Origin: an uncultured Candidatus Saccharibacteria bacterium
Lineage (GTDB): Bacteria > Patescibacteriota > Doudnabacteria > UBA920
Assembly: GCA_964556325.1 (NCBI GenBank)
Contig: CAZKVS010000004.1
Location: 2,439-66,438, forward strand
Direction: 5' to 3'
Length of the DNA: 64,000 nt
Each line of letters opens with the position of its first letter. The stretch's first letter is position 1. A model generated the notes under the pieces. That model did no database searches and had not been told where the DNA came from. It saw only the letters and a list, made by a program, of their open reading frames with translations. The position numbers were made by a program, and so were the translations under genes. This document shows, in pieces, positions 8,168 to 32,850 of the stretch.

Positions 8168-8196
8168 AGGAAATACTCATCATAGTTGCAAACGCT

Positions 8197-8499
8197 CTAA
8201 ATAGCCCTGTCTGCATACGGATTCGCTTCGAGTCGTTCAGGAGGTATGTCCGCACCATCATCCCCCACCCCATACGTACCAGCATCAATTTTTTGCAAGG
8301 CAGTTTCAATTTTCAATAAATCCGCTTTAATAAGAGCAATAACATCCTGATTTGCTTCGTCTAGGGGCAACTCACCTGCAGCGTCCTCACCTTCCCCCAA
8401 TTCTGTATGAGGCGCGACGCCAGCCACCTCTTCCTGCAGTCTCTTTTGATCTGCAAGCAGTCGTTGTCGCATTTGTTCAATAAATTCTTGTGTAAGCAT
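8197..8499 (-). CDS. DksA/TraR-like protein lacking the Cys4 zinc finger
   Basis: 100 aa, acidic coiled coil plus C-terminal GTYGVGDDGADIPPERLEANPYA resembling the DksA C-terminus without cysteines. Confidence 0.4.
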   Translation of the reverse strand: MLTQEFIEQMRQRLLADQKRLQEEVAGVAPHTELGEGEDAAGELPLDEANQDVIALIKADLLKIETALQKIDAGTYGVGDDGADIPPERLEANPYADRAI

Positions 8500-9306
8500 A
8501 TATGTAGTATATCATATTGATTTCTTTTTTCTCGCATAGAGTCAAGTTTAATTCACTTCATGCAAGAAAAAACCACAAAAAAAACGAACCTAGATATGAC
8601 AAAAGGCCCCTGCAAGGGAACCACGTTAAATAAAGTGTTCCGCAGAGGCCTATAGCCCCTAAAGCTTGAATCACTTTACGCGCGGTATTAAACTACTAAG
8701 CATTTGGTAGCTTAACACCGTGCGTAAGGCAATATTTTCGTCACTTTGAGGTTTTCTCAACTGTAAACAGATGAGATAGCGTCTGACATTCAAGTCTGTG
8801 CCAAACTGGACCTTAAGCTCCTCTTCTGGTGGGCTTCCACCTAAAATAAATTGTTCTTTTGATTTTTTGATTTTTGTTTGATGTGTTCACCTAAAATTTT
8901 GTTAGGAAAACTAGAACCTACATTTTTGTTTTTATTTTGTACAATCAGCTCGGACTTGACGAGCTATGACGAAGAGCTAAAGGAGAACTGAGCATAATGA
9001 GTAGAATAAAGAATTTGGAATAATGAATTTTGAAAAATTCTTTATTTATAATTCTGAATTCTAATTTTCGCGCAGGTTTCCTTCTTCCAATCTTATCCCT
9101 TATGTTGGGATTGGCACGTATTGATTTGTTAATGTGCTATTTAACTTACATAGTAATTGTAATTTTTAGCATCATTTATGTCAATGCAATGGTGTGTATA
9201 GAGTCTTATTTGCGCATATATCTAAGGAGAATACTTTTGAAAAAATTAAAATATCACTTCATCCACATTTTATGGTATGCAATCCACATGTGGATAAGTA
9301 GGCTAC

Positions 9307-22878: not shown

Positions 22879-22980
22879 ATAATTCAGAACTCGTCTATTG
22901 TAGCAAAGTTAATAATACATCCGCTAGGGCCATATTTATAACACCTCGGATAATTACCACCATTGAGAGTTCCAACATGC

Positions 22981-23033
22981 AAAGCGCCACAGGGGCGTTT
23001 TTATATTGGTGGACCTCAGGGGATTTGGTCATC
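22981..23033 (-). repeat. Direct-repeat copy of [terminator hairpin + 19-nt tRNA-Ala(GGC) 3' end (aatcccctgaggtccacca)]
   Basis: About 43-nt near-identical to 23177-23222, which is the real tRNA 3' end plus its terminator. Confidence 0.7.
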
Positions 23034-23039
23034 CACGGC

Positions 23040-23165
23040 TATTCTCGTATTCCTTCGGTCGATTCGAATGACGCCTAACGCCACCCCGCCACTATTTCAT
23101 CCTGCAAGTATTCGGATGAAATTCCCGTGGTACGGGACCGTTCTTTTCGAATCCCCTTCCGTTTC
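23040..23165 (-). repeat. tRNA-linked structured repeat element, copy 1 (minus orientation), between tRNA-Ala(GGC)+terminator and a duplicated tRNA-Ala 3' fragment
   Basis: Shares GAATCGAAAAGAACGGTCCCGTACCACGGGAATTTCATCCGAAYACTTGCAGGATGAAATAGTGGCGGGGT core with copies at 26140-26300 and 32563-32723. Confidence 0.7.
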
Positions 23166-23203
23166 TCTTCCAACATAAAAACGCCACAGGGGCGTTTTTA
23201 TGT

Positions 23204-23279
23204 TGGTGGACCTCAGGGGATTCGAACCCCTCACCTCTTCCATGCCATGGAAGCGCTCTACCAAATGAGCTAGAGGCCC
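23204..23279 (-). tRNA. tRNA-Ala(GGC) with G3:U70, CCA encoded
   Basis: GGGCCTCTAGCTCATTTGGTAGAGCGCTTCCATGGCATGGAAG..GGGGTTCGAATCCCCTGAGGTCCACCA; 76 nt. Confidence 0.9.
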
Positions 23280-23324
23280 AATTGCCGCATTATTGTAATG
23301 GAAAACCACTTATGCAGTCAATGC

Positions 23325-23606
23325 TTATTTGGCCGGATTTTGTGTTTTAAGTACCTGAGTCTTTTGCTGCTGAGTTTGTTGCAGCAGCTGACGCCAGCTG
23401 TCTGCTTCTCTTTGAAATGCCGGAATAATACCAATTATATTCAATAACCACCCGACCAACACTACGGCGATGGCTACGCCAACTACAGAACCCAAGCCAC
23501 TCATTGCGCCGTGTAATAAAGACCTCCACCAAGGAAGACCCTGTCCGACCTTTATTACATTACCATTCAAAGTCTCGAGATATTGTTTTAATTCTGGATC
23601 TAACAT
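23325..23606 (-). CDS. Small membrane protein (hypothetical)
   Basis: 93 aa; one strong TM (VVGVAIAVVLVGWLLNIIGIIPA). Confidence 0.4.
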   Translation of the reverse strand: MLDPELKQYLETLNGNVIKVGQGLPWWRSLLHGAMSGLGSVVGVAIAVVLVGWLLNIIGIIPAFQREADSWRQLLQQTQQQKTQVLKTQNPAK

Positions 23607-23737
23607 TTTTATTTCTTTAGAACTTAGTATTAATATAGTAGCAAATTTATTTCTTTAAAAATGTTAAGCTATGTTTATAAGTACAGCCTGCTTTTTTCTG
23701 CCCTTGCTGGTTGCTATTTCACCCGCACCTTTGGTCT

Positions 23738-23815
23738 CCTCACCAGGAATCGAACCTGGATCTAGACGTTAGTCCCGACTCGGAGTCGGGGTCGTTCCCC
23801 GCCCGCCTGACTCGT
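23738..23815 (-). other. tRNA-like 3' fragment (T-arm CCAGG-TTCGATT-CCTGG + acceptor TGAGGAG + A + CCA) preceded by hairpins; no matching 5' half
   Basis: The 85-nt region immediately downstream of tRNA-Arg cannot form an acceptor stem; contains inverted copy of the galU terminator core. Confidence 0.4.
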
Positions 23816-23816
23816 C

Positions 23817-23891
23817 TGGTGACCTCGATAGGAATCGAACCTATATCGGCGCGTTAGGAGTGCGCTGCTCTATCCATTGAGCTACAAGGCC
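23817..23891 (-). tRNA. tRNA-Arg(CCT), CCA encoded
   Basis: Acceptor GGCCTTG/CGAGGTC, D-arm GCTC-AATGGATA-GAGC, anticodon loop CUCCUAA, T-arm ATAGG-TTCGATT-CCTAT; one A·C mismatch at base of anticodon stem. Confidence 0.6.
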
Positions 23892-23951
23892 GTCAGGCGA
23901 GTTAGGCGAGTATCAATTTTATCCAAGGGAATCTGCAAAATCCTGTAGCAA

Positions 23952-25373
23952 TTGTATCATACCTGTATGGAAAGGTTTAAAAAAACCGTCTCACAACTAT
24001 ATCCCTGGCTTCTCAAGCCTGAAACTATCAAAAAAGCAACCACTGCCTTTATTTTTTGTTTTATTTTTTGTACGGCGGTGTCGATATATTTCAATATACG
24101 AACCCCACTAAACCAGAACTTCGCCTATTTTCTTGGTGAGAAAAAAGATTTTAGCATAAACTTTCTTTATTTAAGCGATATATTTAGTATTCTTGCTCTA
24201 TCCATCTTGTGTTTACACGTGCACAAATTCAATAAAGAGCCAAACATATATTTACCCAGCTTTTTCCCCACTCTGATTATTATTCTTTCAGTCTTCTCAT
24301 ATTTCTCAAATTTTATAAAGTTAACAATTCCTACCATATCTATATTTTACTTGCTATATATAGCTAAAGGTATTGTTTTACATGAAACGGTAAAACAAAG
24401 CGGAACCAGTATAAAAAACTTTATTCTGCGAGTAATCTGGATATTTGGCTTATTTGAAGCATTTGTATCAATTATTCAATTTTCTTTCCAGTCACCGCTC
24501 GGCATGAGGTTGTTAGGAGAACCAACTTTTGGCCCATATCTGTGGCAAATAGCTAAAGTTGAGGCTCTGGGACAAATATTTGCCCGCCCGTATGGCACAT
24601 TTTCTCACCCCAACATCTTGTCCGCTTTCTTGGTGCTTACTTTGATAATAGGTTTCTACTATTATTACTCCCAAGCTGCTCAAACAAAAAAAGCCTGGGC
24701 TCATCTAATCTTAGTTCAAATAACGGTTATTGGCTTATTTCTAAGCTTTTCTCGAGCGGCGTGGCTAGCGGCAGCTCTTGCCACAGGCTTTTTTCATGTT
24801 TTCACATGGAACATATTAAAATCGCAAAAGCGAGTTCAGCTTTTTCGGATTTTCATTGTAAGCGCCGCCTTGGGTTGTATACTATTGGCAATATACCAGC
24901 CTTTTGTAGGACAACGAGGAAATGTTTTCGATAAGGCCTACCAGGAGAGAATAAGCTATAACCGGGCTGCAGTATCAATGATTAGCAAAAATCCCATATT
25001 TGGTCTTGGCCCAGGCGAATCCGTGCTTCACATGGAACAGTTTTTAACACCAAACTCAAAACCGTGGGAGGTACAGCCAATACACAATTACTATTTACTA
25101 TTGGCTGCAGAAATTGGGTTGCCGGCAGCTTTGTTGTTCTCGCTCTACCTTGGCTTCACCCTTAAACGGCTAGTTTTTCATCAAGGCAAGCTTACAGATA
25201 AAAACACGCTTACACATGCTCTGCTTTTATCTGGCTTGGCCGGATGCGCCATTCTTATGTTTTTTGATCATTATTTCTATACAATCCAAGCCTCAACGCT
25301 CTTATTTTGGATTTGGTTAGGCTTATCTGCCTCAACAACAGAATACCCAGCTAATAAAACAAGGACTACCTAG
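23952..25373 (+). CDS. O-antigen ligase/polymerase (Wzy_C)-family membrane protein
   Basis: 473 aa, about 12 TM, FSRAAWLAAALA loop motif typical of the O-antigen ligase family. Confidence 0.65.
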   Translation: MYHTCMERFKKTVSQLYPWLLKPETIKKATTAFIFCFIFCTAVSIYFNIRTPLNQNFAYFLGEKKDFSINFLYLSDIFSILALSILCLHVHKFNKEPNIYLPSFFPTLIIILSVFSYFSNFIKLTIPTISIFYLLYIAKGIVLHETVKQSGTSIKNFILRVIWIFGLFEAFVSIIQFSFQSPLGMRLLGEPTFGPYLWQIAKVEALGQIFARPYGTFSHPNILSAFLVLTLIIGFYYYYSQAAQTKKAWAHLILVQITVIGLFLSFSRAAWLAAALATGFFHVFTWNILKSQKRVQLFRIFIVSAALGCILLAIYQPFVGQRGNVFDKAYQERISYNRAAVSMISKNPIFGLGPGESVLHMEQFLTPNSKPWEVQPIHNYYLLLAAEIGLPAALLFSLYLGFTLKRLVFHQGKLTDKNTLTHALLLSGLAGCAILMFFDHYFYTIQASTLLFWIWLGLSASTTEYPANKTRTT

Positions 25374-25843
25374 TCCTTGTGATACTCTTTGCCTTCCATA
25401 ATTGTACAGGCACGATATATTTGTTCTTCTAGTAGCACCCTCGCGAAATTGTGCGTAAAAGTGAGGGGGCTCAATGAAACAAGATGATTCGCAGCCTGTC
25501 TGAGGCTTTTATCAATCCCAGCCCCGCTGCCAATAACGCATACAATTTCTCTGTTTATAGAGATGAGCCTACTTAGGAATTGAGAAAAATCAACTGAGCC
25601 TCTTGTAACACCCTTCTCGTCTAGGACAATAATAATTGCATCCTTGGGTATGCGCCTCAAAACCGTTTCCGCTTCTTCTGCCCGCGCCCGCTCTATGTCT
25701 CCAGTTGTTTTATATGAAACTTCTTTTAGCTCTTCTATGGTTATTTTGGCGTAGAGGCGAAGTCTTTTTAAATACTCTTTTTCTAAATCAATAAAAGCTT
25801 TCTCTTTAAACTTTCCCAGACAAATAATTTTTAGCTTAAACAT
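25370..25843 (-). CDS. rlmH: 23S rRNA (pseudouridine1915-N3)-methyltransferase RlmH (SPOUT)
   Basis: 157 aa; MFKLKIICLGKFKEK..YLKRL N-terminus and C-terminal knot GSGAGIDKS typical of RlmH/YbeA. Confidence 0.8.
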   Translation of the reverse strand: MFKLKIICLGKFKEKAFIDLEKEYLKRLRLYAKITIEELKEVSYKTTGDIERARAEEAETVLRRIPKDAIIIVLDEKGVTRGSVDFSQFLSRLISINREIVCVIGSGAGIDKSLRQAANHLVSLSPLTFTHNFARVLLEEQIYRACTIMEGKEYHKD

Positions 25844-26026
25844 ATGTAAATTGTATATTTAGTTTATTTTCTCCTCCTTTAGTATAGTTGGTCGTTTCAC
25901 ATAAAACAAAAAGTTGTGGGGTTTACTAAAACAGACCATGTCCGTTACAATATTAACGTACTTACTCCTAAAATAATCGTCAATACGACTGGCTTGCCCT
26001 ACGAATCCGCCAGCTGGCGAGTAATA

Positions 26027-26100
26027 GGGCCCGTAGTAAAGTGGTATTACACGGCATTCGCATTGCTGAGGCGGGGGTTCGATTCCCCCCGGGTCCACCA
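26027..26100 (+). tRNA. tRNA-Ala(CGC) with G3:U70, CCA encoded
   Basis: Acceptor GGGCCCG/CGGGTCC, D-arm GTAA-AGTGGTA-TTAC, anticodon stem CGGCA/TGCTG, loop UUCGCAU, T-arm GGGGG-TTCGATT-CCCCC. Confidence 0.85.
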
Positions 26101-26135
26101 ACAAAAATTCTCACTGCTTAGTGAGAATTTTTGTT
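26101..26135 (+). terminator. Terminator hairpin acaaaaattctcac-tgctta-gtgagaatttttgt
   Basis: 14-bp perfect palindrome after tRNA-Ala(CGC). Confidence 0.65.
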
Positions 26136-26139
26136 GGTC

Positions 26140-26300
26140 GGATAAAAGCGGGGGGAATCGAAAAGAACGGTCCCGTACCACGGGAATTTCATCCGAACAC
26201 TTGCAGGATGAAATAGTGGCGGGGTCGCGTTAGGTGAGGCTTGATGCGACTGCAAGGAGTAGAAAGTCCACCGTGGGTGACCGATTCTTTAAATTGAAAT
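26140..26300 (+). repeat. tRNA-linked structured repeat element, copy 2 (full length)
   Basis: ...GAATCGAAAAGAACGGTCCCGTACCACGGGAATTTCATCCGAACACTTGCAGGATGAAATAGTGGCGGGGTCGCGTTAGGTGAGGCTTGATGCGACTGCAAGGAGTAGAAAGTCCACCGTGGGTGACCGATTC; followed by tccaccaa (tRNA 3'-end-like) and a second terminator at 26309-26343. Confidence 0.7.
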
Positions 26301-26358
26301 CCACCAAATTAAAAACATCTCACCAATCAGTGAGATGTTTTTAATACTGCAGAATATC

Positions 26359-26583
26359 CTACCAATGAAACAGTCGAGCAAACATACGTTCTAAGTAATG
26401 CTGTTGTTCGTTAGTATAATAGACAGCTAACAAGCCAACTAAATACACTACATTCAAAATAATTACTCGTATGAGGTCTTTGCTTATTACGTTATATTCC
26501 GAATCCCATGCGGGATTTGAGGATAAGGCTGTGCTGGAGACGTTTGCTTTACGATTTTTCTTAGACATAAGTATTCCTTTCAA
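26359..26583 (-). CDS. Small membrane protein (hypothetical)
   Basis: 74 aa, one TM (IILNVVYLVGLLAVYY). Confidence 0.35.
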   Translation of the reverse strand: MKGILMSKKNRKANVSSTALSSNPAWDSEYNVISKDLIRVIILNVVYLVGLLAVYYTNEQQHYLERMFARLFHW

Positions 26584-26706
26584 CCACTAATACCATATCA
26601 AATCGCCCATTTGAACGCAAGGCCACAAAATGATACAATAGCGCCACAAGGGCAAAAGAAATAACTATACATTGAATGCCATTTTTGGCTTAAGAAAGCG
26701 GAAATT

Positions 26707-27096
26707 ATGGAAAAAATAAATGATTCAGATGCAGCAAATGCCGAAACCGTTGTTGGTCCCTCAGTTAAAATCCAGGGGGATTTAAATTCCGAAGGCAACA
26801 TCCGCATCGAAGGCCAAGTAAACGGTAAAGTAAAAACTACCCAAAACGTACATGTTGGCAAATCCGCAAAAATTACGGCGGACATCCTCGCCGGAAATTC
26901 AACCATTGCAGGAGAAGTGTTGGGCAACATTAAAGTATCTGGAAGTCTTATTTTACAATCAACCGCAAAGGTCACGGGCGATATCTCGTGTGGGGTACTT
27001 CGAGTGGAGGATGGGGCTCTATTTACAGGTAAATGCAGCATGGGCACTACAACCGACAAGGCTAAACACACACCAGAACCTGAACCAGAAAACTAA
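26707..27096 (+). CDS. Bactofilin
   Basis: Repetitive beta-helical DUF583 pattern (GKVKTTQNVHVGKSAKITADILAGNSTIAGEVLGNIKVSGSLILQSTAKVTGDIS). Confidence 0.8.
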   Translation: MEKINDSDAANAETVVGPSVKIQGDLNSEGNIRIEGQVNGKVKTTQNVHVGKSAKITADILAGNSTIAGEVLGNIKVSGSLILQSTAKVTGDISCGVLRVEDGALFTGKCSMGTTTDKAKHTPEPEPEN

Positions 27097-27194
27097 ACGA
27101 AGCCAATTCCTAATTTCTAATTCCTAATTTCTAATTGATATCCAGTGGTGGACTGTCATTAGATATTAAAAATTAGTCATTAGGAATTTTCCTT

Positions 27195-28040
27195 ATGTAC
27201 TACTACATCCTTGATCCAGGGAAAATGTCACTGCCAAAATTTGAACAAGTGCAAGTGGAGCTTCAAGGACTCTTGCATGAATTTAATATATCTGGAGAAT
27301 TTGCGCGCATTACCACCCTACGAACTATTGCCGACTTAGTAGATGTAGCTGCAACCCGTGGTGCGACCACTGTTGTGGTTTGCGGCAATGACGATACATT
27401 AAATCAAGTACTTGCAGCTGTAGGCCAAAGAGATTTTTTGGTGGGCTTTATTCCGCTTGACCCAGCCAATTCTTACTTAGCAACAATTTTAGGGCTTCCT
27501 GATTTAATTACATCGGTAAAGACAGTTGCGGCAAGAAGAATAGTTACGATTGATACTGCCACTATTAATCAATTATCTTTTATCAGCTTTGTAGAGTTTG
27601 GGGTCACAAGCAACAACTTTAGCCAAGTAGGACCGTGGAAAACTTTTCGCCTGCTTTCAAAATCCCCCACGAAGTGGACATTGAAGATTGACAACTCGTA
27701 CACGCTGAGCATCCAGGGCTTAGGTGGGCTGGTTATAAACAGCCGAAGCACCTCCTCAAAGCAAGAAAAGCTTGCCAATCCGACCGATGGTTTTTTGGAT
27801 GTACTGGTCATGGAAGAAATTAGCAAAGTAGATATATTTAAATACAAAGAACTCATTGCCCAAGGGCGACTCGAAGAGCTGCCGAATCCAACAATAATAA
27901 AATGTAAAACTGTTGAGCTTGTAGAACCGCGGGGTTCCACAGTGACTATGTTTGGCAGACCCGTAGCAAAATTTCCGGCAATCATATCCATGACTGGCAA
28001 AAAACAACGAATGATAGTAGGAAAACAAAGAACCTTTTAA
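27195..28040 (+). CDS. Diacylglycerol-kinase catalytic-domain (YegS/DgkB-like) lipid kinase
   Basis: DAGK_cat-like N-terminus: VVVCGNDDTLNQVL (GGDGT-box variant), GFIPLDPAN. Confidence 0.65.
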   Translation: MYYYILDPGKMSLPKFEQVQVELQGLLHEFNISGEFARITTLRTIADLVDVAATRGATTVVVCGNDDTLNQVLAAVGQRDFLVGFIPLDPANSYLATILGLPDLITSVKTVAARRIVTIDTATINQLSFISFVEFGVTSNNFSQVGPWKTFRLLSKSPTKWTLKIDNSYTLSIQGLGGLVINSRSTSSKQEKLANPTDGFLDVLVMEEISKVDIFKYKELIAQGRLEELPNPTIIKCKTVELVEPRGSTVTMFGRPVAKFPAIISMTGKKQRMIVGKQRTF

Positions 28041-28145
28041 AGGCAGAAGTTAGAATTATGAATTATGAATCCTCAACTCCTTCCTACGGAAGGAGTTGAG
28101 TCATTTAATTCTGCATTCTACATTCTGACTTCTGCATTCTCGTGG
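28041..28145. repeat. AT-rich palindromic intergenic element (gcagaagtYagaat ... attctgacttctgc arms around cctcaactccttcc-tacg-gaaggagttgagtc hairpin)
   Basis: Inverted arms plus central perfect hairpin immediately after DAGK-like stop; shares the 14-nt word attctgcattctac with 30143-30228. Confidence 0.6.
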
Positions 28146-28214
28146 GGTTGCCAAGCAAAGGATAAATCAGTACAATGAGATGTATATCTATTAGAAATTT
28201 GGCCCTATTTTCAC

Positions 28215-30143
28215 ATGAATCTTTCTAGTCTGTCCTCAGAACTTAATTTATCCATCCAAGAACTCCGAACCAAAGCGGCTGCGGCAGGCTTTTTTATATC
28301 ACCCCGGGCGAATAAACTGGACAATTCCTTAGCTAAACAAATTTTAGACAAACTGAAACAGCAACCCAGAAACACCCCCACCCCTCAGCCTGCAGCGAAC
28401 ACAGTAGTAGAGTTGCCTTCTTTTATCAAAGTACGGGAATTTGCCTTACTATTAAACCGACCGGTTGTAGAAGTCATAAAAGTTCTCATACAAAATGGCG
28501 TCATGGCCACCATTAACGAAGAGATAGACTACGACACCGCAGCCATTATTGCTCAAGATTTAGGATTTGAAGTTCAAGCGCAAGCTACAGAAAATAAAGC
28601 CAACGCAGGCTTGGGCCTCCTTCACGAAATACTTACGGGAGAGCAACCGAAGGACATGACACAACGCCCACCGATAGTGGCCGTAATGGGTCATGTGGAC
28701 CACGGAAAGACCACCTTACTTGACGCCATTAGGCAAGCAAATGTGGTAGGAGGTGAATCCGGCGGAATTACTCAACACATTGGCGCGTACCAAGTGAAAC
28801 ACAACGGCAAGCTCATAACTTTTCTCGATACTCCTGGTCATGAAGCGTTCTCTGAAATGCGCGCCCGCGGTGCAAACGTTACCGATTTAATTGTATTAGT
28901 AGTGGCAGCGGACGATGGCGTACGACCCCAAACTGTTGAAGTTATTAATCGTGCTAAGTTTTCAGACGTTCCCATTATTGTTGCTATAAACAAAGTAGAT
29001 AAGGAAAACGCCAACCCCATGCGCGTTAAGCAAGAGTTGGCTGGTCTTGGTGTTGTGACTGAGGACTGGGGCGGTAAAACCATAGCAGTAGAAGTTTCCG
29101 CCAAACAACGCAAAGGAATAGAAGCATTACTAGACATGATTTTGCTTTCCGCTGAGGTAGAAAATTTTCAAGCTAACCCGAGCGGTAAAACGGTTGGAAC
29201 GGTTATCGAGTCTCACACTGAAAGTGGCAAGGGTCCTGTGGCAAGCGTTATTATCCAAAACGGAACTCTGGAAATTGGAGACATCATCGTAGCAGGAAGT
29301 GGGTACGGTAGAGTAAAAAGCCTGGAAGACGAGTACGGCAAAAAGGTAAAAAACGCCACACCTTCTACTCCAGTGGAAATTGCCGGTTTCTCTATTGCAC
29401 CCCAAGCTGGGGATATTTTACGCAAACTCGACTCAATCGAAAAAGCGAAAGAAATTTCAGATTTTTCACTGAAACAACAAAGGAGCCACACCCTCCGTTC
29501 TAAAAAACAGCTCCAAGGTGACATGACTAGCAAGTCTTTGAACCTCATTATTAAAGCCGATGTAGCAGGCTCACTAGAAGCTATCGAGCAGTCTCTTGGC
29601 AAACTTAAGAACGATGAGGTTACCTTAAATATTATTAGTAAAGGGGTAGGAGAAGTAAACGAGTCAGATGTATTACTTGCTTCTAGCAGCAACGCCGCAA
29701 TTATTGCTTTCCGCTCAAAGACCAACCCTAAGGCAATCAACCTCGCAAAACAGAAACAAGTCAGCGTAGACACCTACGAAGTTATTTACGAACTACTCGA
29801 GGACATCACTACTGCGGTAGTAAAACTCTTCACACCTGAATACGAACGCACCTCATTTGGCAAAGGTCAAATACTCGCTATTTTCCGTACGGAAAAGAAC
29901 CAGATGATTATCGGAGGCAAAGTTGCGTCTGGAGAAATACGAAAGAATAAACAAGTAGCAGTGTGGCGCGGTGAGGTTGAAGTAGGCCACGGAGAAATTC
30001 TTGAACTGCAAGAGAGCAAAATTGCCACCAAAGAAGTAGCGAGCGGTCGAGAATTTGGCATGAAAATAAAAATAGCCAGCAGACTACAAGTAGGCGATGT
30101 GTTAGAGTCCTACGAAGAAACGCTTAAACAGAAAACCCTTTAA
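28215..30143 (+). CDS. infB: Translation initiation factor IF-2
   Basis: G-domain VAVMGHVDHGKTTLLDAIR, DTPGHEAF, NKVD; C-terminal beta-barrels. Confidence 0.95.
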   Translation: MNLSSLSSELNLSIQELRTKAAAAGFFISPRANKLDNSLAKQILDKLKQQPRNTPTPQPAANTVVELPSFIKVREFALLLNRPVVEVIKVLIQNGVMATINEEIDYDTAAIIAQDLGFEVQAQATENKANAGLGLLHEILTGEQPKDMTQRPPIVAVMGHVDHGKTTLLDAIRQANVVGGESGGITQHIGAYQVKHNGKLITFLDTPGHEAFSEMRARGANVTDLIVLVVAADDGVRPQTVEVINRAKFSDVPIIVAINKVDKENANPMRVKQELAGLGVVTEDWGGKTIAVEVSAKQRKGIEALLDMILLSAEVENFQANPSGKTVGTVIESHTESGKGPVASVIIQNGTLEIGDIIVAGSGYGRVKSLEDEYGKKVKNATPSTPVEIAGFSIAPQAGDILRKLDSIEKAKEISDFSLKQQRSHTLRSKKQLQGDMTSKSLNLIIKADVAGSLEAIEQSLGKLKNDEVTLNIISKGVGEVNESDVLLASSSNAAIIAFRSKTNPKAINLAKQKQVSVDTYEVIYELLEDITTAVVKLFTPEYERTSFGKGQILAIFRTEKNQMIIGGKVASGEIRKNKQVAVWRGEVEVGHGEILELQESKIATKEVASGREFGMKIKIASRLQVGDVLESYEETLKQKTL

Positions 30144-30228
30144 CAAAGCAGAAGTCAGAATTTAGAATGCAGAAGTAAAGAGCTTATTCTCAATTCTAAA
30201 TTCATGATTCTGCATTCTACGTTTATCT
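30143..30228. repeat. AT-rich palindromic intergenic element, second copy (downstream of infB)
   Basis: gcagaagtcagaatttagaatgcagaagt...attctaaattcatgattctgcattctac. Confidence 0.55.
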
Positions 30229-30229
30229 C

Positions 30230-30601
30230 ATGCCCACCGACCAAAAAGAGCCACGACTACGCGTAACGCGTCTACAAAGCCTCATCCAGGAATTACTCGG
30301 TAAAATATTACCCGAGTATTTAAGCGATGCGAAAGCATTGGTCACCGTAAGCCAGGTAGAGGTAAGTGGCGACTTACGCCATGCAAAGGTGTGGCTTTCA
30401 GTATTGGGTGGCAATGACGACGCCGTCTTTAAAACCTTGGAAAAAAACATGTACCAAATTCAGGGGGATTTAAACCGTGAGCTGCCCATGAAGATGATTC
30501 CCCGACTCCAGTTTCAGCTGGATACAAGCCCTCGGTACGCAGAACATATTTCCGAACTCATCAATCGCATACACACTGATGACCACGCCGACACCATTTA
30601 A
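30230..30601 (+). CDS. rbfA: Ribosome-binding factor A
   Basis: KH-like RbfA signature ..SDAKALVTVSQVEVSGDLRHAKVWLSVLG.. Confidence 0.85.
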   Translation: MPTDQKEPRLRVTRLQSLIQELLGKILPEYLSDAKALVTVSQVEVSGDLRHAKVWLSVLGGNDDAVFKTLEKNMYQIQGDLNRELPMKMIPRLQFQLDTSPRYAEHISELINRIHTDDHADTI

Positions 30602-31586
30602 CACCAATATACTTACGGCCGATAGCTTAGCCGCCCTCACACTGCTTCAAGGTAAGCAGCGTGTTTTTTTGACAACCCACGAACGAACCGATGGTGATGA
30701 TTTAGGAACCGTGTTAGCCCTCGGACACGCCTTGAAAAGCCAAGGCAAACACGTAACTATAGGCATACGAGGCGGTGTTCCGAGCTCGCTTATGTTTCTC
30801 CCCGGAAGTACCCTCGTAACCGAAGACGCACCCCCTGCAGATACAGAAGTTATTATTGTCTCCGGCTGTTCTAGCCTAACACGCACCGGCCTACCACTTG
30901 AGTCTTTTAACGCGCCAATTATAAATTTCGACCACCACCCCGACAATACACGGTTCGGCACAGTAAACCTTGTAGACGCCAGCATGTCTTCCGTTGCTGA
31001 GCTTGCCTATCATTTTTGTAGAATTGTAAATTGGCCTGTTGAAAACGAAATGGCCGTATGTTTACTCACAGGAATGATGAGCGACACAGGATCATTCCTA
31101 CATAGCAACACCCAGCCTTCTACACTCTATGCGGCATCCAATCTCATGAATAAGGGTGCGCGGACAACTACCATTGCCAATAACACATTTAAAGGAAAAA
31201 CGCTCCCGGCTCTGAAAGCATGGGGTAGGGCGCTTGCCAATACGTGGTACGACACAGAGAAAAGCATGGTCTGCAGCATTATAACCAACCAGGACCTGCA
31301 AGAACTAAACCATCCACCCCAAAGCGCATTTGAAGGTATAGTGGAGACTATTAATAAAATCCCCGAAGCCCGGTTTGCTTTATTTCTAAAACAAGACGGC
31401 CCTATTGTTAAAGGAAGCCTGCGAAGTGATCCACACAAACCACTCGGAGGACTCGATGTGGGCAGTTTAGCAAGATTGCTTGGCGGAGGAGGCCACCGGA
31501 ACGCTGCAGGCTTCTCTTTCGAAGGCACACTGGTAAAACAAGACAATAAGTGGCTTATCACCCACCCCGCTCTTAAACCCATATAA
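30579..31586 (+). CDS. nrnA: DHH/DHHA1 phosphoesterase (NrnA-type nanoRNase/pAp phosphatase)
   Basis: DHH motifs (TTHERTDGDDLGT; NFDHHPDN), C-terminal DHHA1 GGGGHRNAAG. Confidence 0.8.
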   Translation: MTTPTPFNTNILTADSLAALTLLQGKQRVFLTTHERTDGDDLGTVLALGHALKSQGKHVTIGIRGGVPSSLMFLPGSTLVTEDAPPADTEVIIVSGCSSLTRTGLPLESFNAPIINFDHHPDNTRFGTVNLVDASMSSVAELAYHFCRIVNWPVENEMAVCLLTGMMSDTGSFLHSNTQPSTLYAASNLMNKGARTTTIANNTFKGKTLPALKAWGRALANTWYDTEKSMVCSIITNQDLQELNHPPQSAFEGIVETINKIPEARFALFLKQDGPIVKGSLRSDPHKPLGGLDVGSLARLLGGGGHRNAAGFSFEGTLVKQDNKWLITHPALKPI

Positions 31587-31614
31587 AAATCCCGACCATA
31601 AGTCGGGATTTTTA
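31586..31614 (+). terminator. Terminator aaaaatcccgaccataagtcgggattttt
   Basis: 8-bp stem plus T tract after nrnA. Confidence 0.6.
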
Positions 31615-31682
31615 TATTGGTGCCCATTTTTCTCGTCCCCTAATAACCATAAAACTACAGCCATATAATGACTGTAGTTTTA

Positions 31683-31770
31683 TGGTGCCCAGGAGAGGAC
31701 TCGAACCTCCACGGGATTGCTCCCACATCCACCTCAAGGATGCGTGTATACCAAATTCCACCACCTGGGC
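31683..31770 (-). tRNA. tRNA-Leu(GAG), type II, CCA encoded
   Basis: Acceptor GCCCAGG/CCTGGGC, anticodon stem CATCC/GGATG, loop UUGAGGU, long variable arm, T-arm GGAGG-TTCGAGT-CCTCT. Confidence 0.85.
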
Positions 31771-32018
31771 CCTATTGAATTAGCTCACCAATTATAACTA
31801 AAGTTGGCTTAATGTTCAAGCTTTAGACTTGCTAAAGAGAAGAGTATTTGTTACACTACTTTCGTTCTTCTCGAAGCCTCAAACAGGTCTAAAACATATC
31901 CCGAAAGGCTATATAGGGACGGTTAGCTTCCGACTTCGCGTAAAGCTACGTCGGACAAGCAGTGCAAAAAGAACATATTTACTGCACGGCTCGCCCTACG
32001 AAACTCATAGTGTAGTAG

Positions 32019-32094
32019 GGACGGTTAGCTCAGTTGGTAGAGCGCTTCGTTTACACCGAAGATGTCACAGGTTCGAGTCCTGTACCGTCCACCA
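32019..32094 (+). tRNA. tRNA-Val(TAC), CCA encoded
   Basis: GGACGGTTAGCTCAGTTGGTAGAGCGCTTCGTTTACACCGAAGATGTCACAGGTTCGAGTCCTGTACCGTCCACCA. Confidence 0.9.
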
Positions 32095-32239
32095 CTTCTT
32101 CTCCGCCAGCTGGCGGATACGAAGTGCAAGCATAATACTTAGAATTCTACAGTCTAAGAGTTTAATCGCTTTGCTGCCTGAGCGAAGAAGTGTCCTTCGA
32201 AGCTTTAGCGCAGTAGGACCGGACAACAAACTGCGACGA

Positions 32240-32314
32240 GCCTCGGTAGCTCAATGGTAGAGCGAAGCCCTGAAGAGGCTTGCGTTGTCAGTTCGATTCT
32301 GACCCGAGGCACCA
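32240..32314 (+). tRNA. tRNA-Phe(GAA), CCA encoded
   Basis: GCCTCGGTAGCTCAATGGTAGAGCGAAGCCCTGAAGAGGCTTGCGTTGTCAGTTCGATTCTGACCCGAGGCACCA. Confidence 0.9.
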
Positions 32315-32448
32315 CAGTATTTCAGATAAAACTTTTACACTTGGGCCGAAGCTTTGTGAGGTTAAGCGTAAAAGTTAGAGGAGCAGTTGTGGAAGCGCAA
32401 AGCTTTTGACCTTAGTCAAAACCGAGTGGCTGGAACAAACTGCGACGA

Positions 32449-32522
32449 GCGGGTATGGTTCAATGGTAGAACTCCTCCTTGCCAAGGAGGGGATAGGGGT
32501 TCGATTCCCCTTACCCGCTCCA
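32449..32522 (+). tRNA. tRNA-Gly(GCC), CCA encoded
   Basis: GCGGGTATGGTTCAATGGTAGAACTCCTCCTTGCCAAGGAGGGGATAGGGGTTCGATTCCCCTTACCCGCTCCA. Confidence 0.9.
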
Positions 32523-32558
32523 AAAGAAAAGACATCATAGAATGATGTCTTTTCTTTT
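32523..32558 (+). terminator. Terminator aaaagaaaagacatcatagaatgatgtcttttctttt
   Basis: Long perfect hairpin after tRNA-Gly. Confidence 0.65.
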
Positions 32559-32562
32559 GGAG

Positions 32563-32850
32563 AAAATCTGGTAAGGCGAATCGAAAGGAACCATCCTCCG
32601 GTGTACACCGGAGGAATTTCATCTGAATACTTGGAGGATGAAATAGTGGCGAGGTCGCGTTAGATGAGACTTGACGCGACTCTTAAGGAGCTAAAAGTCC
32701 ATCGTGGGCGACCGATTCCCCGCTCCAGCTATAGTTAGAGTATTGAGAAGAACCAAATGAGAGAGGGCCCGCGTTAGGCGTTATACGAATCAATCCGCCA
32801 GCCGGCGGAGAGATGAGTATAGCCGTGGGCGGGTCGATTCGCCTTACCCA
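32563..32850 (+). repeat. tRNA-linked structured repeat element, copy 3 (core 32563-32723) plus 'tail' module (32750-32826) and tRNA-Gly 3'-end-like fragment (32827-32850)
   Basis: Core about 85% identical to copy 2. Tail (gcgttaggcgttatacgaatcaatccgccagccggcgg..tatagccgtgggcgggtcgattcgccttaccc) is homologous to the tail of copy 1 and ends in tcgattcgccttaccc, matching tRNA-Gly tcgattccccttaccc. Confidence 0.65.

Follow-up and report, generated by a model that had tools for sequence, protein, structure and literature searches.

A small structured element behind tRNA genes of Doudnabacteria with arms matched to the host tRNA

What occupies the space behind several tRNA genes in a 64-kb stretch of a Doudnabacteria chromosome (contig CAZKVS010000004.1; "window" refers to this whole stretch of 64,000 nucleotides), and why does it carry parts of the very tRNA that it follows? 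The unit in question is a protein-less element of about 170 to 290 bases, located directly behind tRNA genes in a few Doudnabacteria, which belong to the bacteria of the candidate phyla radiation (CPR). It contains a core with covarying helices between an antisense and a sense copy of the neighboring tRNA's 3' part, and its presence varies between relatives. The best reading of these data, held tentatively and with a probability somewhat short of even, is a non-autonomous miniature tRNA-targeting integrative element that specifies a tRNA-trailer RNA. The window itself is an ordinary chromosome of the Doudnabacteria type, encoding RlmH, IF-2, RbfA, NrnA, RecA, FtsK, GyrA, and TyrRS.

Anatomy of the unit and its copies

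The window contains three full copies, c1, c2, and c3A, a half copy, c3B, and an internally deleted copy, c4. Every copy is located behind a tRNA gene plus hairpin in the same orientation as its tRNA, no open reading frame (ORF) adjoins any of them, and all host tRNAs are intact according to ARAGORN and Rfam. A 20-base core motif occurs three times in the window compared to 0.04 expected occurrences, and a repeat finder recovered the blocks common to the copies, a direct repeat of 43 to 45 nucleotides (nt) at c1, and a shared tail module. A preliminary description of this DNA had placed core copies at 23040-23165 (minus strand), 26140-26300 (plus), and 32563-32723 (plus). These places and strands were correct, and so were the order of tRNA, hairpin, element, and a piece of the tRNA's own 3' end in each copy and the tail module common to c1 and c3. 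The key feature had been overlooked, namely, the antisense 5' arm, by which the closing stem becomes tRNA specific.

In the direction of transcription of the tRNA, its CCA is followed by a hairpin, H', a spacer, the left arm, the core, and the right arm, with a second hairpin in some copies. H' resembles a terminator with a stem of 16 to 21 bp and begins at the first base past CCA, with which the TGG at its 3' end pairs. After the spacer of 5 to 14 nt, the left arm is the reverse complement of the T-loop and the 3' strand of the T-stem of its own tRNA, sometimes also of the 3' strand of the acceptor stem. The G right after the left arm is invariant in all eight full copies of the family. The core of about 120 nt is composed of the hairpins P2 and P3 and a long hairpin, P4, with the invariant joiners GAAAAGAAC and TAGTGGCGGG (consensus (G)AAAAGAAC(GG) for J1/2 and (A)TAGTGGCGGG for J3/4). 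P3 is capped by the 11-nt loop GAAyAyTTGsA, and the tail of P4 exists in two versions, A and B. The right arm repeats the sequence of the same tRNA in direct orientation from nt 56 or 58 in the T-loop to CCA, and both arms pair as P1, which closes a cloverleaf-like four-way junction with a free NCCA end. Joiners and loops are better conserved than the stems.

Copy c1 follows tRNA-Ala(GGC) (23204..23279, minus; ARAGORN, and 60.9 bits with the Rfam tRNA model). Its H' (ACATAAAAACGCC cctgt GGCGTTTTTATGTTGG; 23170..23203, minus) starts right after CCA, pairs with it by its 3' TGG, and has the same stem in the relative L018. On the same strand follow the spacer (23157-23169), the left arm GGGGATTCG (23148-23156), antisense to tRNA nt 54-65, and the core (23027..23147; 160 bits with covariance model R2), with J1/2 AAAAGAACGG, P2, P3, J3/4 TAGTGGCGG, and a P4 of tail type B. 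The right arm (23007..23026) is a direct copy of tRNA-Ala(GGC) nt 58-76 including CCA. A second hairpin, H'' (22972..23006), is a near-copy of H' with its loop in the same orientation and forms part of the direct repeat of 43 to 45 nt already noticed in the preliminary description (22981-23025 and 23178-23222; 96% identity).

The complete c2 (26101..26306, plus; 152.7 bits with R2), recognized as a 206-nt insertion by alignment to an empty site, is found behind tRNA-Ala(CGC) (26027..26100, plus; ARAGORN and Rfam). Its H' (26101-26137), spacer (26138-26149), left arm GGGGGGAATCG (26150-26160), and core (26161-26282) are followed by a degenerate right arm ending in TCCACCA (26283-26306); the repeat is indeed merely tccaccaa. 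Next to it lies the native terminator of this tRNA (26307..26345, plus), which follows directly after CCA in relatives without the element.

The composite c3, behind tRNA-Gly(GCC) (32449..32522, plus; ARAGORN and Rfam), the last gene of a Val-Phe-Gly cluster, consists of the full c3A and then the 3' half of a second unit, c3B, all on the plus strand. H', with a 21-bp stem including CTCCA/TGGAG, and the spacer occupy 32523..32569. In c3A (32570..32727; 129.9 bits with R2), the left arm GGTAAGGCGAATCG and a core with tail type A precede an inner right arm, GATTCCCC/GCTCCA, which is the tRNA-Gly 3' end with a 6-nt deletion. The 5'-truncated c3B (32771..32849; 41 bits with R2) is composed of a P4 of tail type B and the right arm CGATTCGCCTTACCC, the exact complement of the c3A left arm; the fragment of the tRNA-Gly 3' end reported before, tcgattcgccttaccc, is present here at 32834-32849. 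Copy c4 is a remnant (31618..31682, minus) behind tRNA-Leu(GAG) (31683..31770, minus; ARAGORN), with H' (31647-31682), the spacer plus a left-arm stub, TTATTAGGGGACGAGAAAAA (31627-31646), and a residue, TGGGCACCA (31618-31626).

A recurring palindrome, first reported as CCGCCAGCNGGCGG, was also recovered in this region. The sequence CCGCCAGCyGGCGG is present at 26007-26020, 32103-32116, and 32795-32808, three times in the window compared to 0.01 expected occurrences. The first site is located upstream of tRNA-Ala(CGC), the second is at the tip of a long hairpin that directly follows tRNA-Val, and the third is the apical hairpin of P4 in c3B, likewise in the relative L030. Since the flanks (ACGAATCC…) are partly shared, this palindrome may be a small module similar to repetitive extragenic palindromic (REP) sequences that moves between contexts.

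Host-matched arms and a folded strand

How close is the match between the arms and the host tRNA? In c1, the left arm GGGGATTCGAA complements the tRNA stretch TTCGAATCCCC, in c2 GGGGGGAATCGAA complements TTCGATTCCCCCC, and in c3 GGTAAGGCGAATCGAA complements TTCGATTCCCCTTACC with one change. The left arms are antisense from tRNA nt 54 onward, and exact matches stop between nt 61 and 67. Pairing extends to nt 72 with one G·U pair in L1, the copy in the Doudnabacteria assembly L001, and covers only nt 59-64 in the two copies at tRNA-Leu, with one G·U pair in that of L010 (L10). Acceptor-stem pairing is absent in six of the eight full copies. Every right arm starts at the CGA of the T-loop, and it is identical to nt 56-76 of its own tRNA in L1, L10, and the L018 copies L18a and L18b, and to nt 58-76 in c1. 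The flanking direct repeats have different lengths of 8, 19 to 21, or 43 nt or are absent.

The arms follow sequence changes in the tRNA. In the Ala(GGC) copies of the window and of L018, two genomes with 67% RlmH identity, both arms track their own genome's tRNA, CCCCTGAGG versus TCTCCATAGG. The outer right arm of c3 differs by a C-to-G change from tRNA-Gly and from L030, and the left arm bears the complementary change. The right arm of c2 drifted from CCCC to CTTT and still pairs with the GGGG of the left arm via G·U.

Such a match could be generated by a copy-based, templated mobile element, either retroelement-like or template-switching, with the core being the RNA recognized by its enzyme. 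A polymerase or reverse transcriptase (RT) would start from the target tRNA or its gene, copy the 3' end as far as the T-loop, and switch to the core at a CGA/TCGA microhomology, and a snap-back on the palindromic TTCGAA would yield direct and inverted arms at each insertion. This would agree with arms that match the local tRNA next to cores that are 95 to 97% identical, with a left side that is an imperfect mirror of the tRNA 3' end across H', TGG(N) included, with the 43-nt duplication of tRNA end plus terminator in c1, and with a retron-like topology that includes the invariant G after the left arm. The start of the right arms at T-loop nt 56-58 could, speculatively, even fit an RT stop at a modified base; A58 is methylated in some bacteria. 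Nevertheless, there is no RT in the window or next to any copy and no match to an Rfam retron, and the loops of both c1 hairpins are oriented alike instead of being mirrored, as a snap-back would give. Moreover, the left regions of L1, c2, c1, and L18a are mutually alignable at near-constant length and share a ACCGAGCGGGA-like stretch, the exact complement of tRNA-Asp. This suggests that the left regions descend from an Asp-associated ancestor, with the T-stem part later adapted to the new tRNA, and descent with modification argues against fresh templating at each insertion. The conserved 3' end of the element, GTGGGTGACCGA, is also similar to the 5' strand of the T-stem together with the T-loop in tRNA-Asp, GCGGGTTCGA. 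Templated copying is therefore considered improbable.

Is the core conserved as a folded strand? RNAalifold predicted 30 pairs for the eight copies, 15 of them with compensatory double changes. An author-defined structure, composed of P1, P2, P3, P4a, and P4b, was compared with 500 shuffled alignments and with slid partners as controls. The portion of paired cells was 86.9% compared to 75.5 ± 1.3% after shuffling, changes on both sides were present in 15 of the 36 pairs compared to 9.0 ± 1.7, and the covariation score was 0.404 compared to 0.200; none of the 500 shuffles reached any of these values. Sliding the 3' partners by 1 to 3 columns decreased the pairing to 35 to 50%, with at most 5 doubly changed pairs. 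P3 occurs in five sequence versions, every one of them complementary, namely, TTTCATCC/GGATGAAA, TTTCATGC/GCATGAAA, TGCAGTGC/GCACTGTA, TGTGTTGC/GCAACAAA, and TGTATTGT/GCAATACA. The hairpins had been called "compensatory-looking" in the preliminary description, and this judgment was right, since the fold is conserved with compensatory changes; the first hairpin, listed there as a shared motif, differs in sequence in c3, CCTCCGGTG/CACCGGAGG, and this difference is an instance of the covariation instead.

Watson-Crick pairs number 253 in the hand-curated helices, next to 15 G·U and only 3 A·C pairs. The excess of G·U over A·C indicates that the tRNA-sense strand is the folded one, either as RNA or as single-stranded DNA of this sense. 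The covarying core together with the antisense arm shows selection on a folded single strand, which most simply would be a tRNA-trailer RNA.

Other explanations for a conserved stretch of this kind were rejected. A protein-coding element would not agree with copy differences that are compensatory in stems, with length changes in P2, and with the lack of homologs; a stop-free "peptide" in an antisense frame had no matches in a set of 5.8 billion proteins. Small ribozymes (hammerhead, hairpin, twister, and others) and fragments of group I or II introns yielded no covariance model matches, and the motifs inspected by eye did not fit.

Folding predictions illustrate what such a trailer might look like. 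In the fold of L1, a stem of 17 bp closes the structure and leaves a GCCA tail (z = −6.3), and the unit without the tRNA forms P1 in ViennaRNA. In a read-through transcript composed of tRNA, H', and unit, the minimum-energy fold contains a partner swap in four of five units, the exception being c2; the 3' half of the tRNA pairs with the left arm, thereby extending H', and its 5' half pairs with the right arm. In L1, c2, and L18a, the CCA at the end of the unit is paired with the TGG that follows H', so that the first and last bases of the unit abut like a nick in one helix. This arrangement follows from the repeats and by itself is no evidence of function, but two testable RNA states and a possible circle junction are defined by it.

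Abutting ends may bring to mind a mobile unit based on RNA, a kind so far without description in bacteria. Its ends would be set by tRNA 3' processing, from CCA to CCA, and it would be circularized or copied by an RT and reinserted behind a matching tRNA gene, as a parasite resembling a short interspersed nuclear element (SINE) or a retron. The RT would initiate on, or switch to, tRNA 3' ends, and the parasite would borrow the T-arm and acceptor strand of each host tRNA. This proposal is regarded as doubtful.

The same fold could belong to a functional gene for a tRNA-mimicking noncoding RNA (ncRNA) that is cotranscribed with the tRNA, cut out by tRNA-processing enzymes, and not selfish. Its minihelix-like P1 with NCCA would act as decoy, substrate, or regulator, possibly for the CCA-adding enzyme, RNase P, a synthetase, or a tRNA-targeting toxin, and new copies would arise by local duplication. 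The cloverleaf-like junction with its free NCCA, the bias to the tRNA-sense strand, joiners and loops conserved above the stems, the 5' and 3' ends that abut in one helix, and the drift from CCCC to CUUU in the right arm of c2 that retains pairing with GGGG through G·U all agree with a working RNA, and in L1 a 17-bp helix rebuilds the acceptor and T-stem strand of tRNA-Asp in full. On the other hand, the acceptor-stem pairing missing in six of eight copies means that minihelix mimicry is not conserved, a scan for promoters and terminators found no promoter of the unit's own, and the element is restricted to a narrow sub-clade. It is also dispensable, since relatives with 95 to 96% RlmH identity lack it, the window has a deleted copy at tRNA-Leu, and c3B is truncated. 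A tRNA mimic is thus a possible explanation, on the unlikely side.

The antisense strand provides a further observation. The reverse complement of P2 followed by CCGTTCTTTT or TGGTTCCTTT scores like an intrinsic terminator in all three copies, at 23123-23137 (plus), 26171-26185 (minus), and 32594-32615 (minus), and the A-rich conserved joiner J1/2 may double as a U-tract for antisense transcripts. Could the unit then be a cis-acting terminator or insulator? H' would end the tRNA transcript, the reverse complement of P2 plus GTTCTTTTCGA would end antisense transcription, and the rest would be padding. The scan flags this site with its T-rich tail in c1, c2, and c3, and the units are located between convergent or neighboring genes. 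Such a function leaves P3, P4, the conserved joiners, the tRNA-matched arms, and the G·U bias of the sense strand unexplained, and one ordinary terminator suffices in relatives, so that the chance of this explanation is very slight.

Distribution, turnover, and neighboring repeats

How widespread is the unit? Contigs of relatives with conserved synteny were retrieved via RlmH and a neighboring protein and scanned with covariance models. Beyond the window, five copies exist in three related Doudnabacteria assemblies. L018 contains a copy behind tRNA-Ala(GGC), with a strongly diverged second unit in tandem after it, and another copy behind tRNA-Leu(GAG); L010 also contains a copy behind tRNA-Leu(GAG), and L030 a full-length ortholog of c3B. 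The remaining one of the five, L1, was the single true match in a scan of 185,579 species genomes and is located behind tRNA-Asp(GTC) in L001, a Candidatus Doudnabacteria metagenome-assembled genome. Its left arm has 19 nt with one G·U pair, and its right arm is the exact 21-nt copy cgagtcccgttcggtccgcca. In four assembly lineages and behind five different host tRNAs, the family therefore amounts to eight full copies plus two partial ones and a remnant. Copies are present in the assemblies GCA_020049755.1, GCA_964490395.1, and JAHFJI01.

Beyond these genomes, the searches yielded no further members. The same tRNA loci are free of the element in the distant relatives L022, L026, and L028 (63 to 65% RlmH identity) and in L031. 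Metagenome scans at the Joint Genome Institute (JGI) returned nothing or two chance matches without a covariance model match, scans of viral contigs returned nothing or chance matches only, and blastn against phages and plasmids found no copies. These searches indicate a rare family that does not extend beyond a sub-clade. At the gathering threshold, Rfam 15 reports only tRNAs in the window and no family for the element, and at an E-value of up to 10 it adds only tRNA matches and spurious hairpin matches in c1 and c3; literature searches retrieved no prior description of such an element. The conserved covarying fold, the sense-strand bias, and the missing Rfam match support the earlier suggestion of an undescribed tRNA-linked ncRNA family.

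Several short-read contigs from Logan (L006, L007, L009, L034, L035, and L036), which belong to the strain of the window and to close relatives of it, end inside tRNA-Ala(CGC) or tRNA-Ala(GGC), which fits assembly breaks caused by a repeated element with duplicated tRNA ends. L036 additionally shows a partial internal duplication of a tRNA, probably an assembly artifact.

Comparison of the same tRNA loci between relatives, which the preliminary description had proposed, revealed an exact empty site. In L010, L012, and L016 (95 to 96% RlmH identity), the terminator AAATTAAAAACATCTCAC… comes directly after tRNA-Ala(CGC). The window and the identical NCBI contig L008 contain 206 extra nt between two TCCACCA(A) repeats at this position. 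The contigs of intermediate relatives (84 to 92% RlmH identity) end inside tRNA-Ala(CGC), short of the position of c2. Copies have also decayed, c4 lacking about 128 nt of core that L010 retains and c3B lacking the 5' half that L030 retains, and tandem units are present at c3 and in L018. The cores of c1, c2, and L1 are 95 to 97% identical, in two genomes behind Ala(GGC), Ala(CGC), and Asp; the Leu-associated cores and that of L030 are 60 to 76% identical to them. With its c2-like core and type-B tail, c1 shows that copies exchange modules. Taken together, these comparisons indicate that the element is dispensable, has recently spread, and recombines.

Might these units be inert scars, either decayed tandem duplicates of tRNA genes or leftover ends, from the attR side, of larger deleted elements? 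The partial duplication of tRNA 3' ends would agree with this origin, a decaying module resembling a tRNA 3' half also exists behind tRNA-Arg(CCT), and in L031 an ORF-poor insert of 598 nt behind tRNA-Gly is flanked by a duplicated terminator. The core itself has no similarity to tRNAs, and tRNA models of ARAGORN and Rfam match the arms only. The boundaries are the same at five different tRNAs, the helices covary, and cores behind different tRNAs and in different genomes share 95 to 97% identity. Searches of phages, plasmids, viral contigs, and metagenomes returned no larger element that ends in this way. Consequently, scars are very unlikely, and the "tRNA-array duplication scar" once proposed for the window is not supported for a core that is not similar to tRNAs, is nearly identical behind three of them, and has covarying helices of its own.

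Other oddities linked to tRNA genes were noted in these genomes. A conserved module right after tRNA-Arg(CCT) (23817-23891) occupies 23732-23816 on the minus strand and is also present in L018, L026, L010, and L036, being decayed in the latter two. It starts with GACGAGTCAGGCGGGCGGGGAAC, followed by a hairpin that varies, and its end comprises a complete T-arm, the 3' strand of the acceptor stem, and CCA, CCAGGTTCGATTCCTGGTGAGGAGACCA in the window. Its T-stem covaries between genomes (CCAGG/CCTGG, GTAGG/CCTAC, and GTTGG/CCAGC), and both ARAGORN and Rfam leave it uncalled. The module may represent either a tRNA-like RNA of a non-canonical type or an old duplication of part of tRNA-Arg. In L031 (GCA_041389225.1), the terminator of tRNA-Gly, CAACAAAAAACTCTCCCTAAAGGAGAGTTTTTTGTTG, forms a perfect 37-nt direct repeat (8185-8221 and 8820-8856) around the insert of about 598 nt, which is AT-rich, has no long ORF, and is followed by about 1.1 kb of further gene-poor DNA. 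Here the cargo is a different one, and the terminator in the 3' flank of a tRNA is duplicated in the same manner. Within the Val-Phe-Gly cluster of the window, two spacers, 32095-32239 (145 nt) and 32315-32448 (134 nt), both end in AACAAACTGCGACGAG and do not match the element model. The three tRNAs are just 0 to 33 nt apart in L022 and L031, so that the spacers of the window look like lineage-specific insertions.

Integration at tRNA 3' ends and relation to known systems

How may the unit have reached its positions? As a miniature integrative element, it would bring along a tRNA 3' end and a terminator of its own and recombine with the segment from T-loop to CCA of a tRNA gene, by means of a hypothetical enzyme that is encoded elsewhere and acts in trans. 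The tRNA would stay intact, with the duplicate of its 3' end on the far side. Read-through from the promoter of the tRNA would then turn the element into a structured trailer RNA, and selection on this RNA, or on folded single-stranded DNA of the same strand, would keep the helices and readapt the left arm to the tRNA end in the right arm. Recombination between T-loop and CCA would explain where the unit is located and how it is oriented, as well as the boundaries of the repeats, the empty site, tandem accretion, and jumps between tRNAs with similar ends. Like the recombination and its enzyme, we infer transcription and any cellular role of the RNA from these patterns. The miniature integrative element of the preliminary description is supported with respect to its behavior, which includes the empty site, the repeat from T-loop to CCA, tandem and decayed copies, and no recombinase in the window; its enzyme and crossover are the portion that goes beyond what was seen.

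Whether H' belongs to the moving unit should be considered separately. The spacing between the core and the terminal TGG of H' hardly varies, which fits H' as part of the unit, and so does c2, where the left-hand hairpin is unlike the native terminator, which sits intact on the right. At c3, H' and spacer resemble the terminator region behind tRNA-Gly of a distant relative without the element, which disfavors H' as part of the unit.

Several points weigh against the integrative element. The likeness of the c3 hairpin just mentioned means that plain insertion downstream of a terminator fits better than a T-loop crossover. The repeat identity at c2 covers only 8 nt, and its empty site could be the result of a secondary deletion between these 8-nt repeats. 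Among 40 ORFs of the window, none encodes an integrase, in agreement with the preliminary description, or another recombinase, transposase, RT, or HUH protein, and no recombinase was called on the related loci of the relatives. A conservative integrase model needs neither the antisense left arm nor the covarying core, and the covariation statistics come from eight copies that represent only about five independent sequence lineages. Finally, the scan found no promoter-like site between H' and core, while H' looks like a working terminator; the core would have to be transcribed by read-through from the tRNA promoter.

To place the unit among known systems, it was compared with five kinds of them. 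A classification published by Williams in 2002 reportedly contains a "T-loop sublocation" class of tRNA-targeting integrative elements. Members of this class are prophages and islands with tyrosine integrases and integrase-less derivatives such as cis-mobilizable elements (CIMEs) and mobilizable islands. The unit resembles them by its location at the 3' part of a tRNA, its direct repeat from T-loop to CCA (longer in c1) that restores an intact tRNA, occupied and empty sites among strains and relatives, and tandem accretion. It differs by its size of 170 to 290 bp instead of kilobases, which is more than 10 times smaller, by being gene-free, by an extra inverted copy of the tRNA end and a covarying core, and by its use of at least five tRNAs; no domain of a tyrosine or serine recombinase was seen in the 64-kb window or the related loci.

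Miniature transposable elements with inverted repeats (MITEs) and structured repeats such as Correia, ERIC, BOX, RUP, and REP are likewise short, ORF-less, multicopy, and foldable with inverted repeats, and bacterial MITEs are also non-autonomous and decay by internal deletion. Here, in contrast, the terminal inverted repeats are not constant within the family, since they differ per copy and equal the neighboring tRNA. There is no target-site duplication of fixed length and no parent insertion sequence, and strict specificity for tRNA flanks and compensatory internal helices are added. Transposition that recognizes hairpins, IS200/IS605-like or other, was rejected because the H' sequences are wholly different between copies, and an invertible segment was rejected because all copies are oriented alike relative to the tRNA.

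Folded single-strand recombination sites are known from the attC sites of integrons and the attP hairpin of CTX phage. The tRNA 3' end, H', and left arm form a comparable long imperfect palindrome with unpaired bulges, in which a single strand would rebuild a duplex copy of the target site and structure is kept as the sequence varies. The boxes of this palindrome are TTCGA/TCGAA and not the RYYYAAC/GTTRRRY of attC, so that there is no consensus of R and L boxes, nor is there an integron integrase or Xer context, and the core has no counterpart.

Two kinds of structured RNA come close. Retron ncRNAs (msr-msd) have paired terminal inverted repeats, to whose a1/a2 stem P1 is similar, an invariant G after the 5' repeat, and two short hairpins followed by one long variable hairpin within about 150 to 200 nt. 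Unlike a retron, the unit has no adjacent gene for an RT or effector, no ORF adjoining any copy, no RT domain in the window, and no Rfam msr match, and its repeats are tRNA-derived and located in a tRNA trailer; the retron-like topology and invariant G are a resemblance only. The tRNA-like domain of tmRNA, viral tRNA-like structures (TLS), and the stable RNAs in tRNA clusters of phage T4 mimic the acceptor/T-arm. Similarly, the 5' and 3' ends of the unit pair into a helix ending in NCCA, it is adjacent to a tRNA, and its ends could be made by tRNA-processing enzymes. Unlike tmRNA and TLS, it has no T-loop, its acceptor part is unpaired in most copies, its helix changes with the neighboring tRNA, and it is mobile and dispensable. 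As in a structured ncRNA, the helices are conserved with compensatory changes on one strand, which folded single-stranded DNA of the same strand would also fit; unlike in a decayed tRNA, tRNA-derived sequence is confined to the two arms. The full definition of no known family applies. The small non-autonomous integrative or MITE-like kind is closest, with a real chance of something more unusual.

If the integrative reading is true, this would be the smallest known mobile element targeting tRNA genes, and its conserved part would be a folded nucleic acid and not a gene. The unit provides a new candidate RNA family for libraries such as Rfam and explains why short-read assemblies break at these tRNAs. 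Its host-matching stem raises the testable question of how a non-coding element is retargeted between tRNAs, for which recombination within the universal T-loop, copying from a template, and selection on an RNA helix are the candidates. Genomes of CPR bacteria, which are usually deemed streamlined and poor in mobile DNA, would then carry an active parasite or commensal of tRNA loci.

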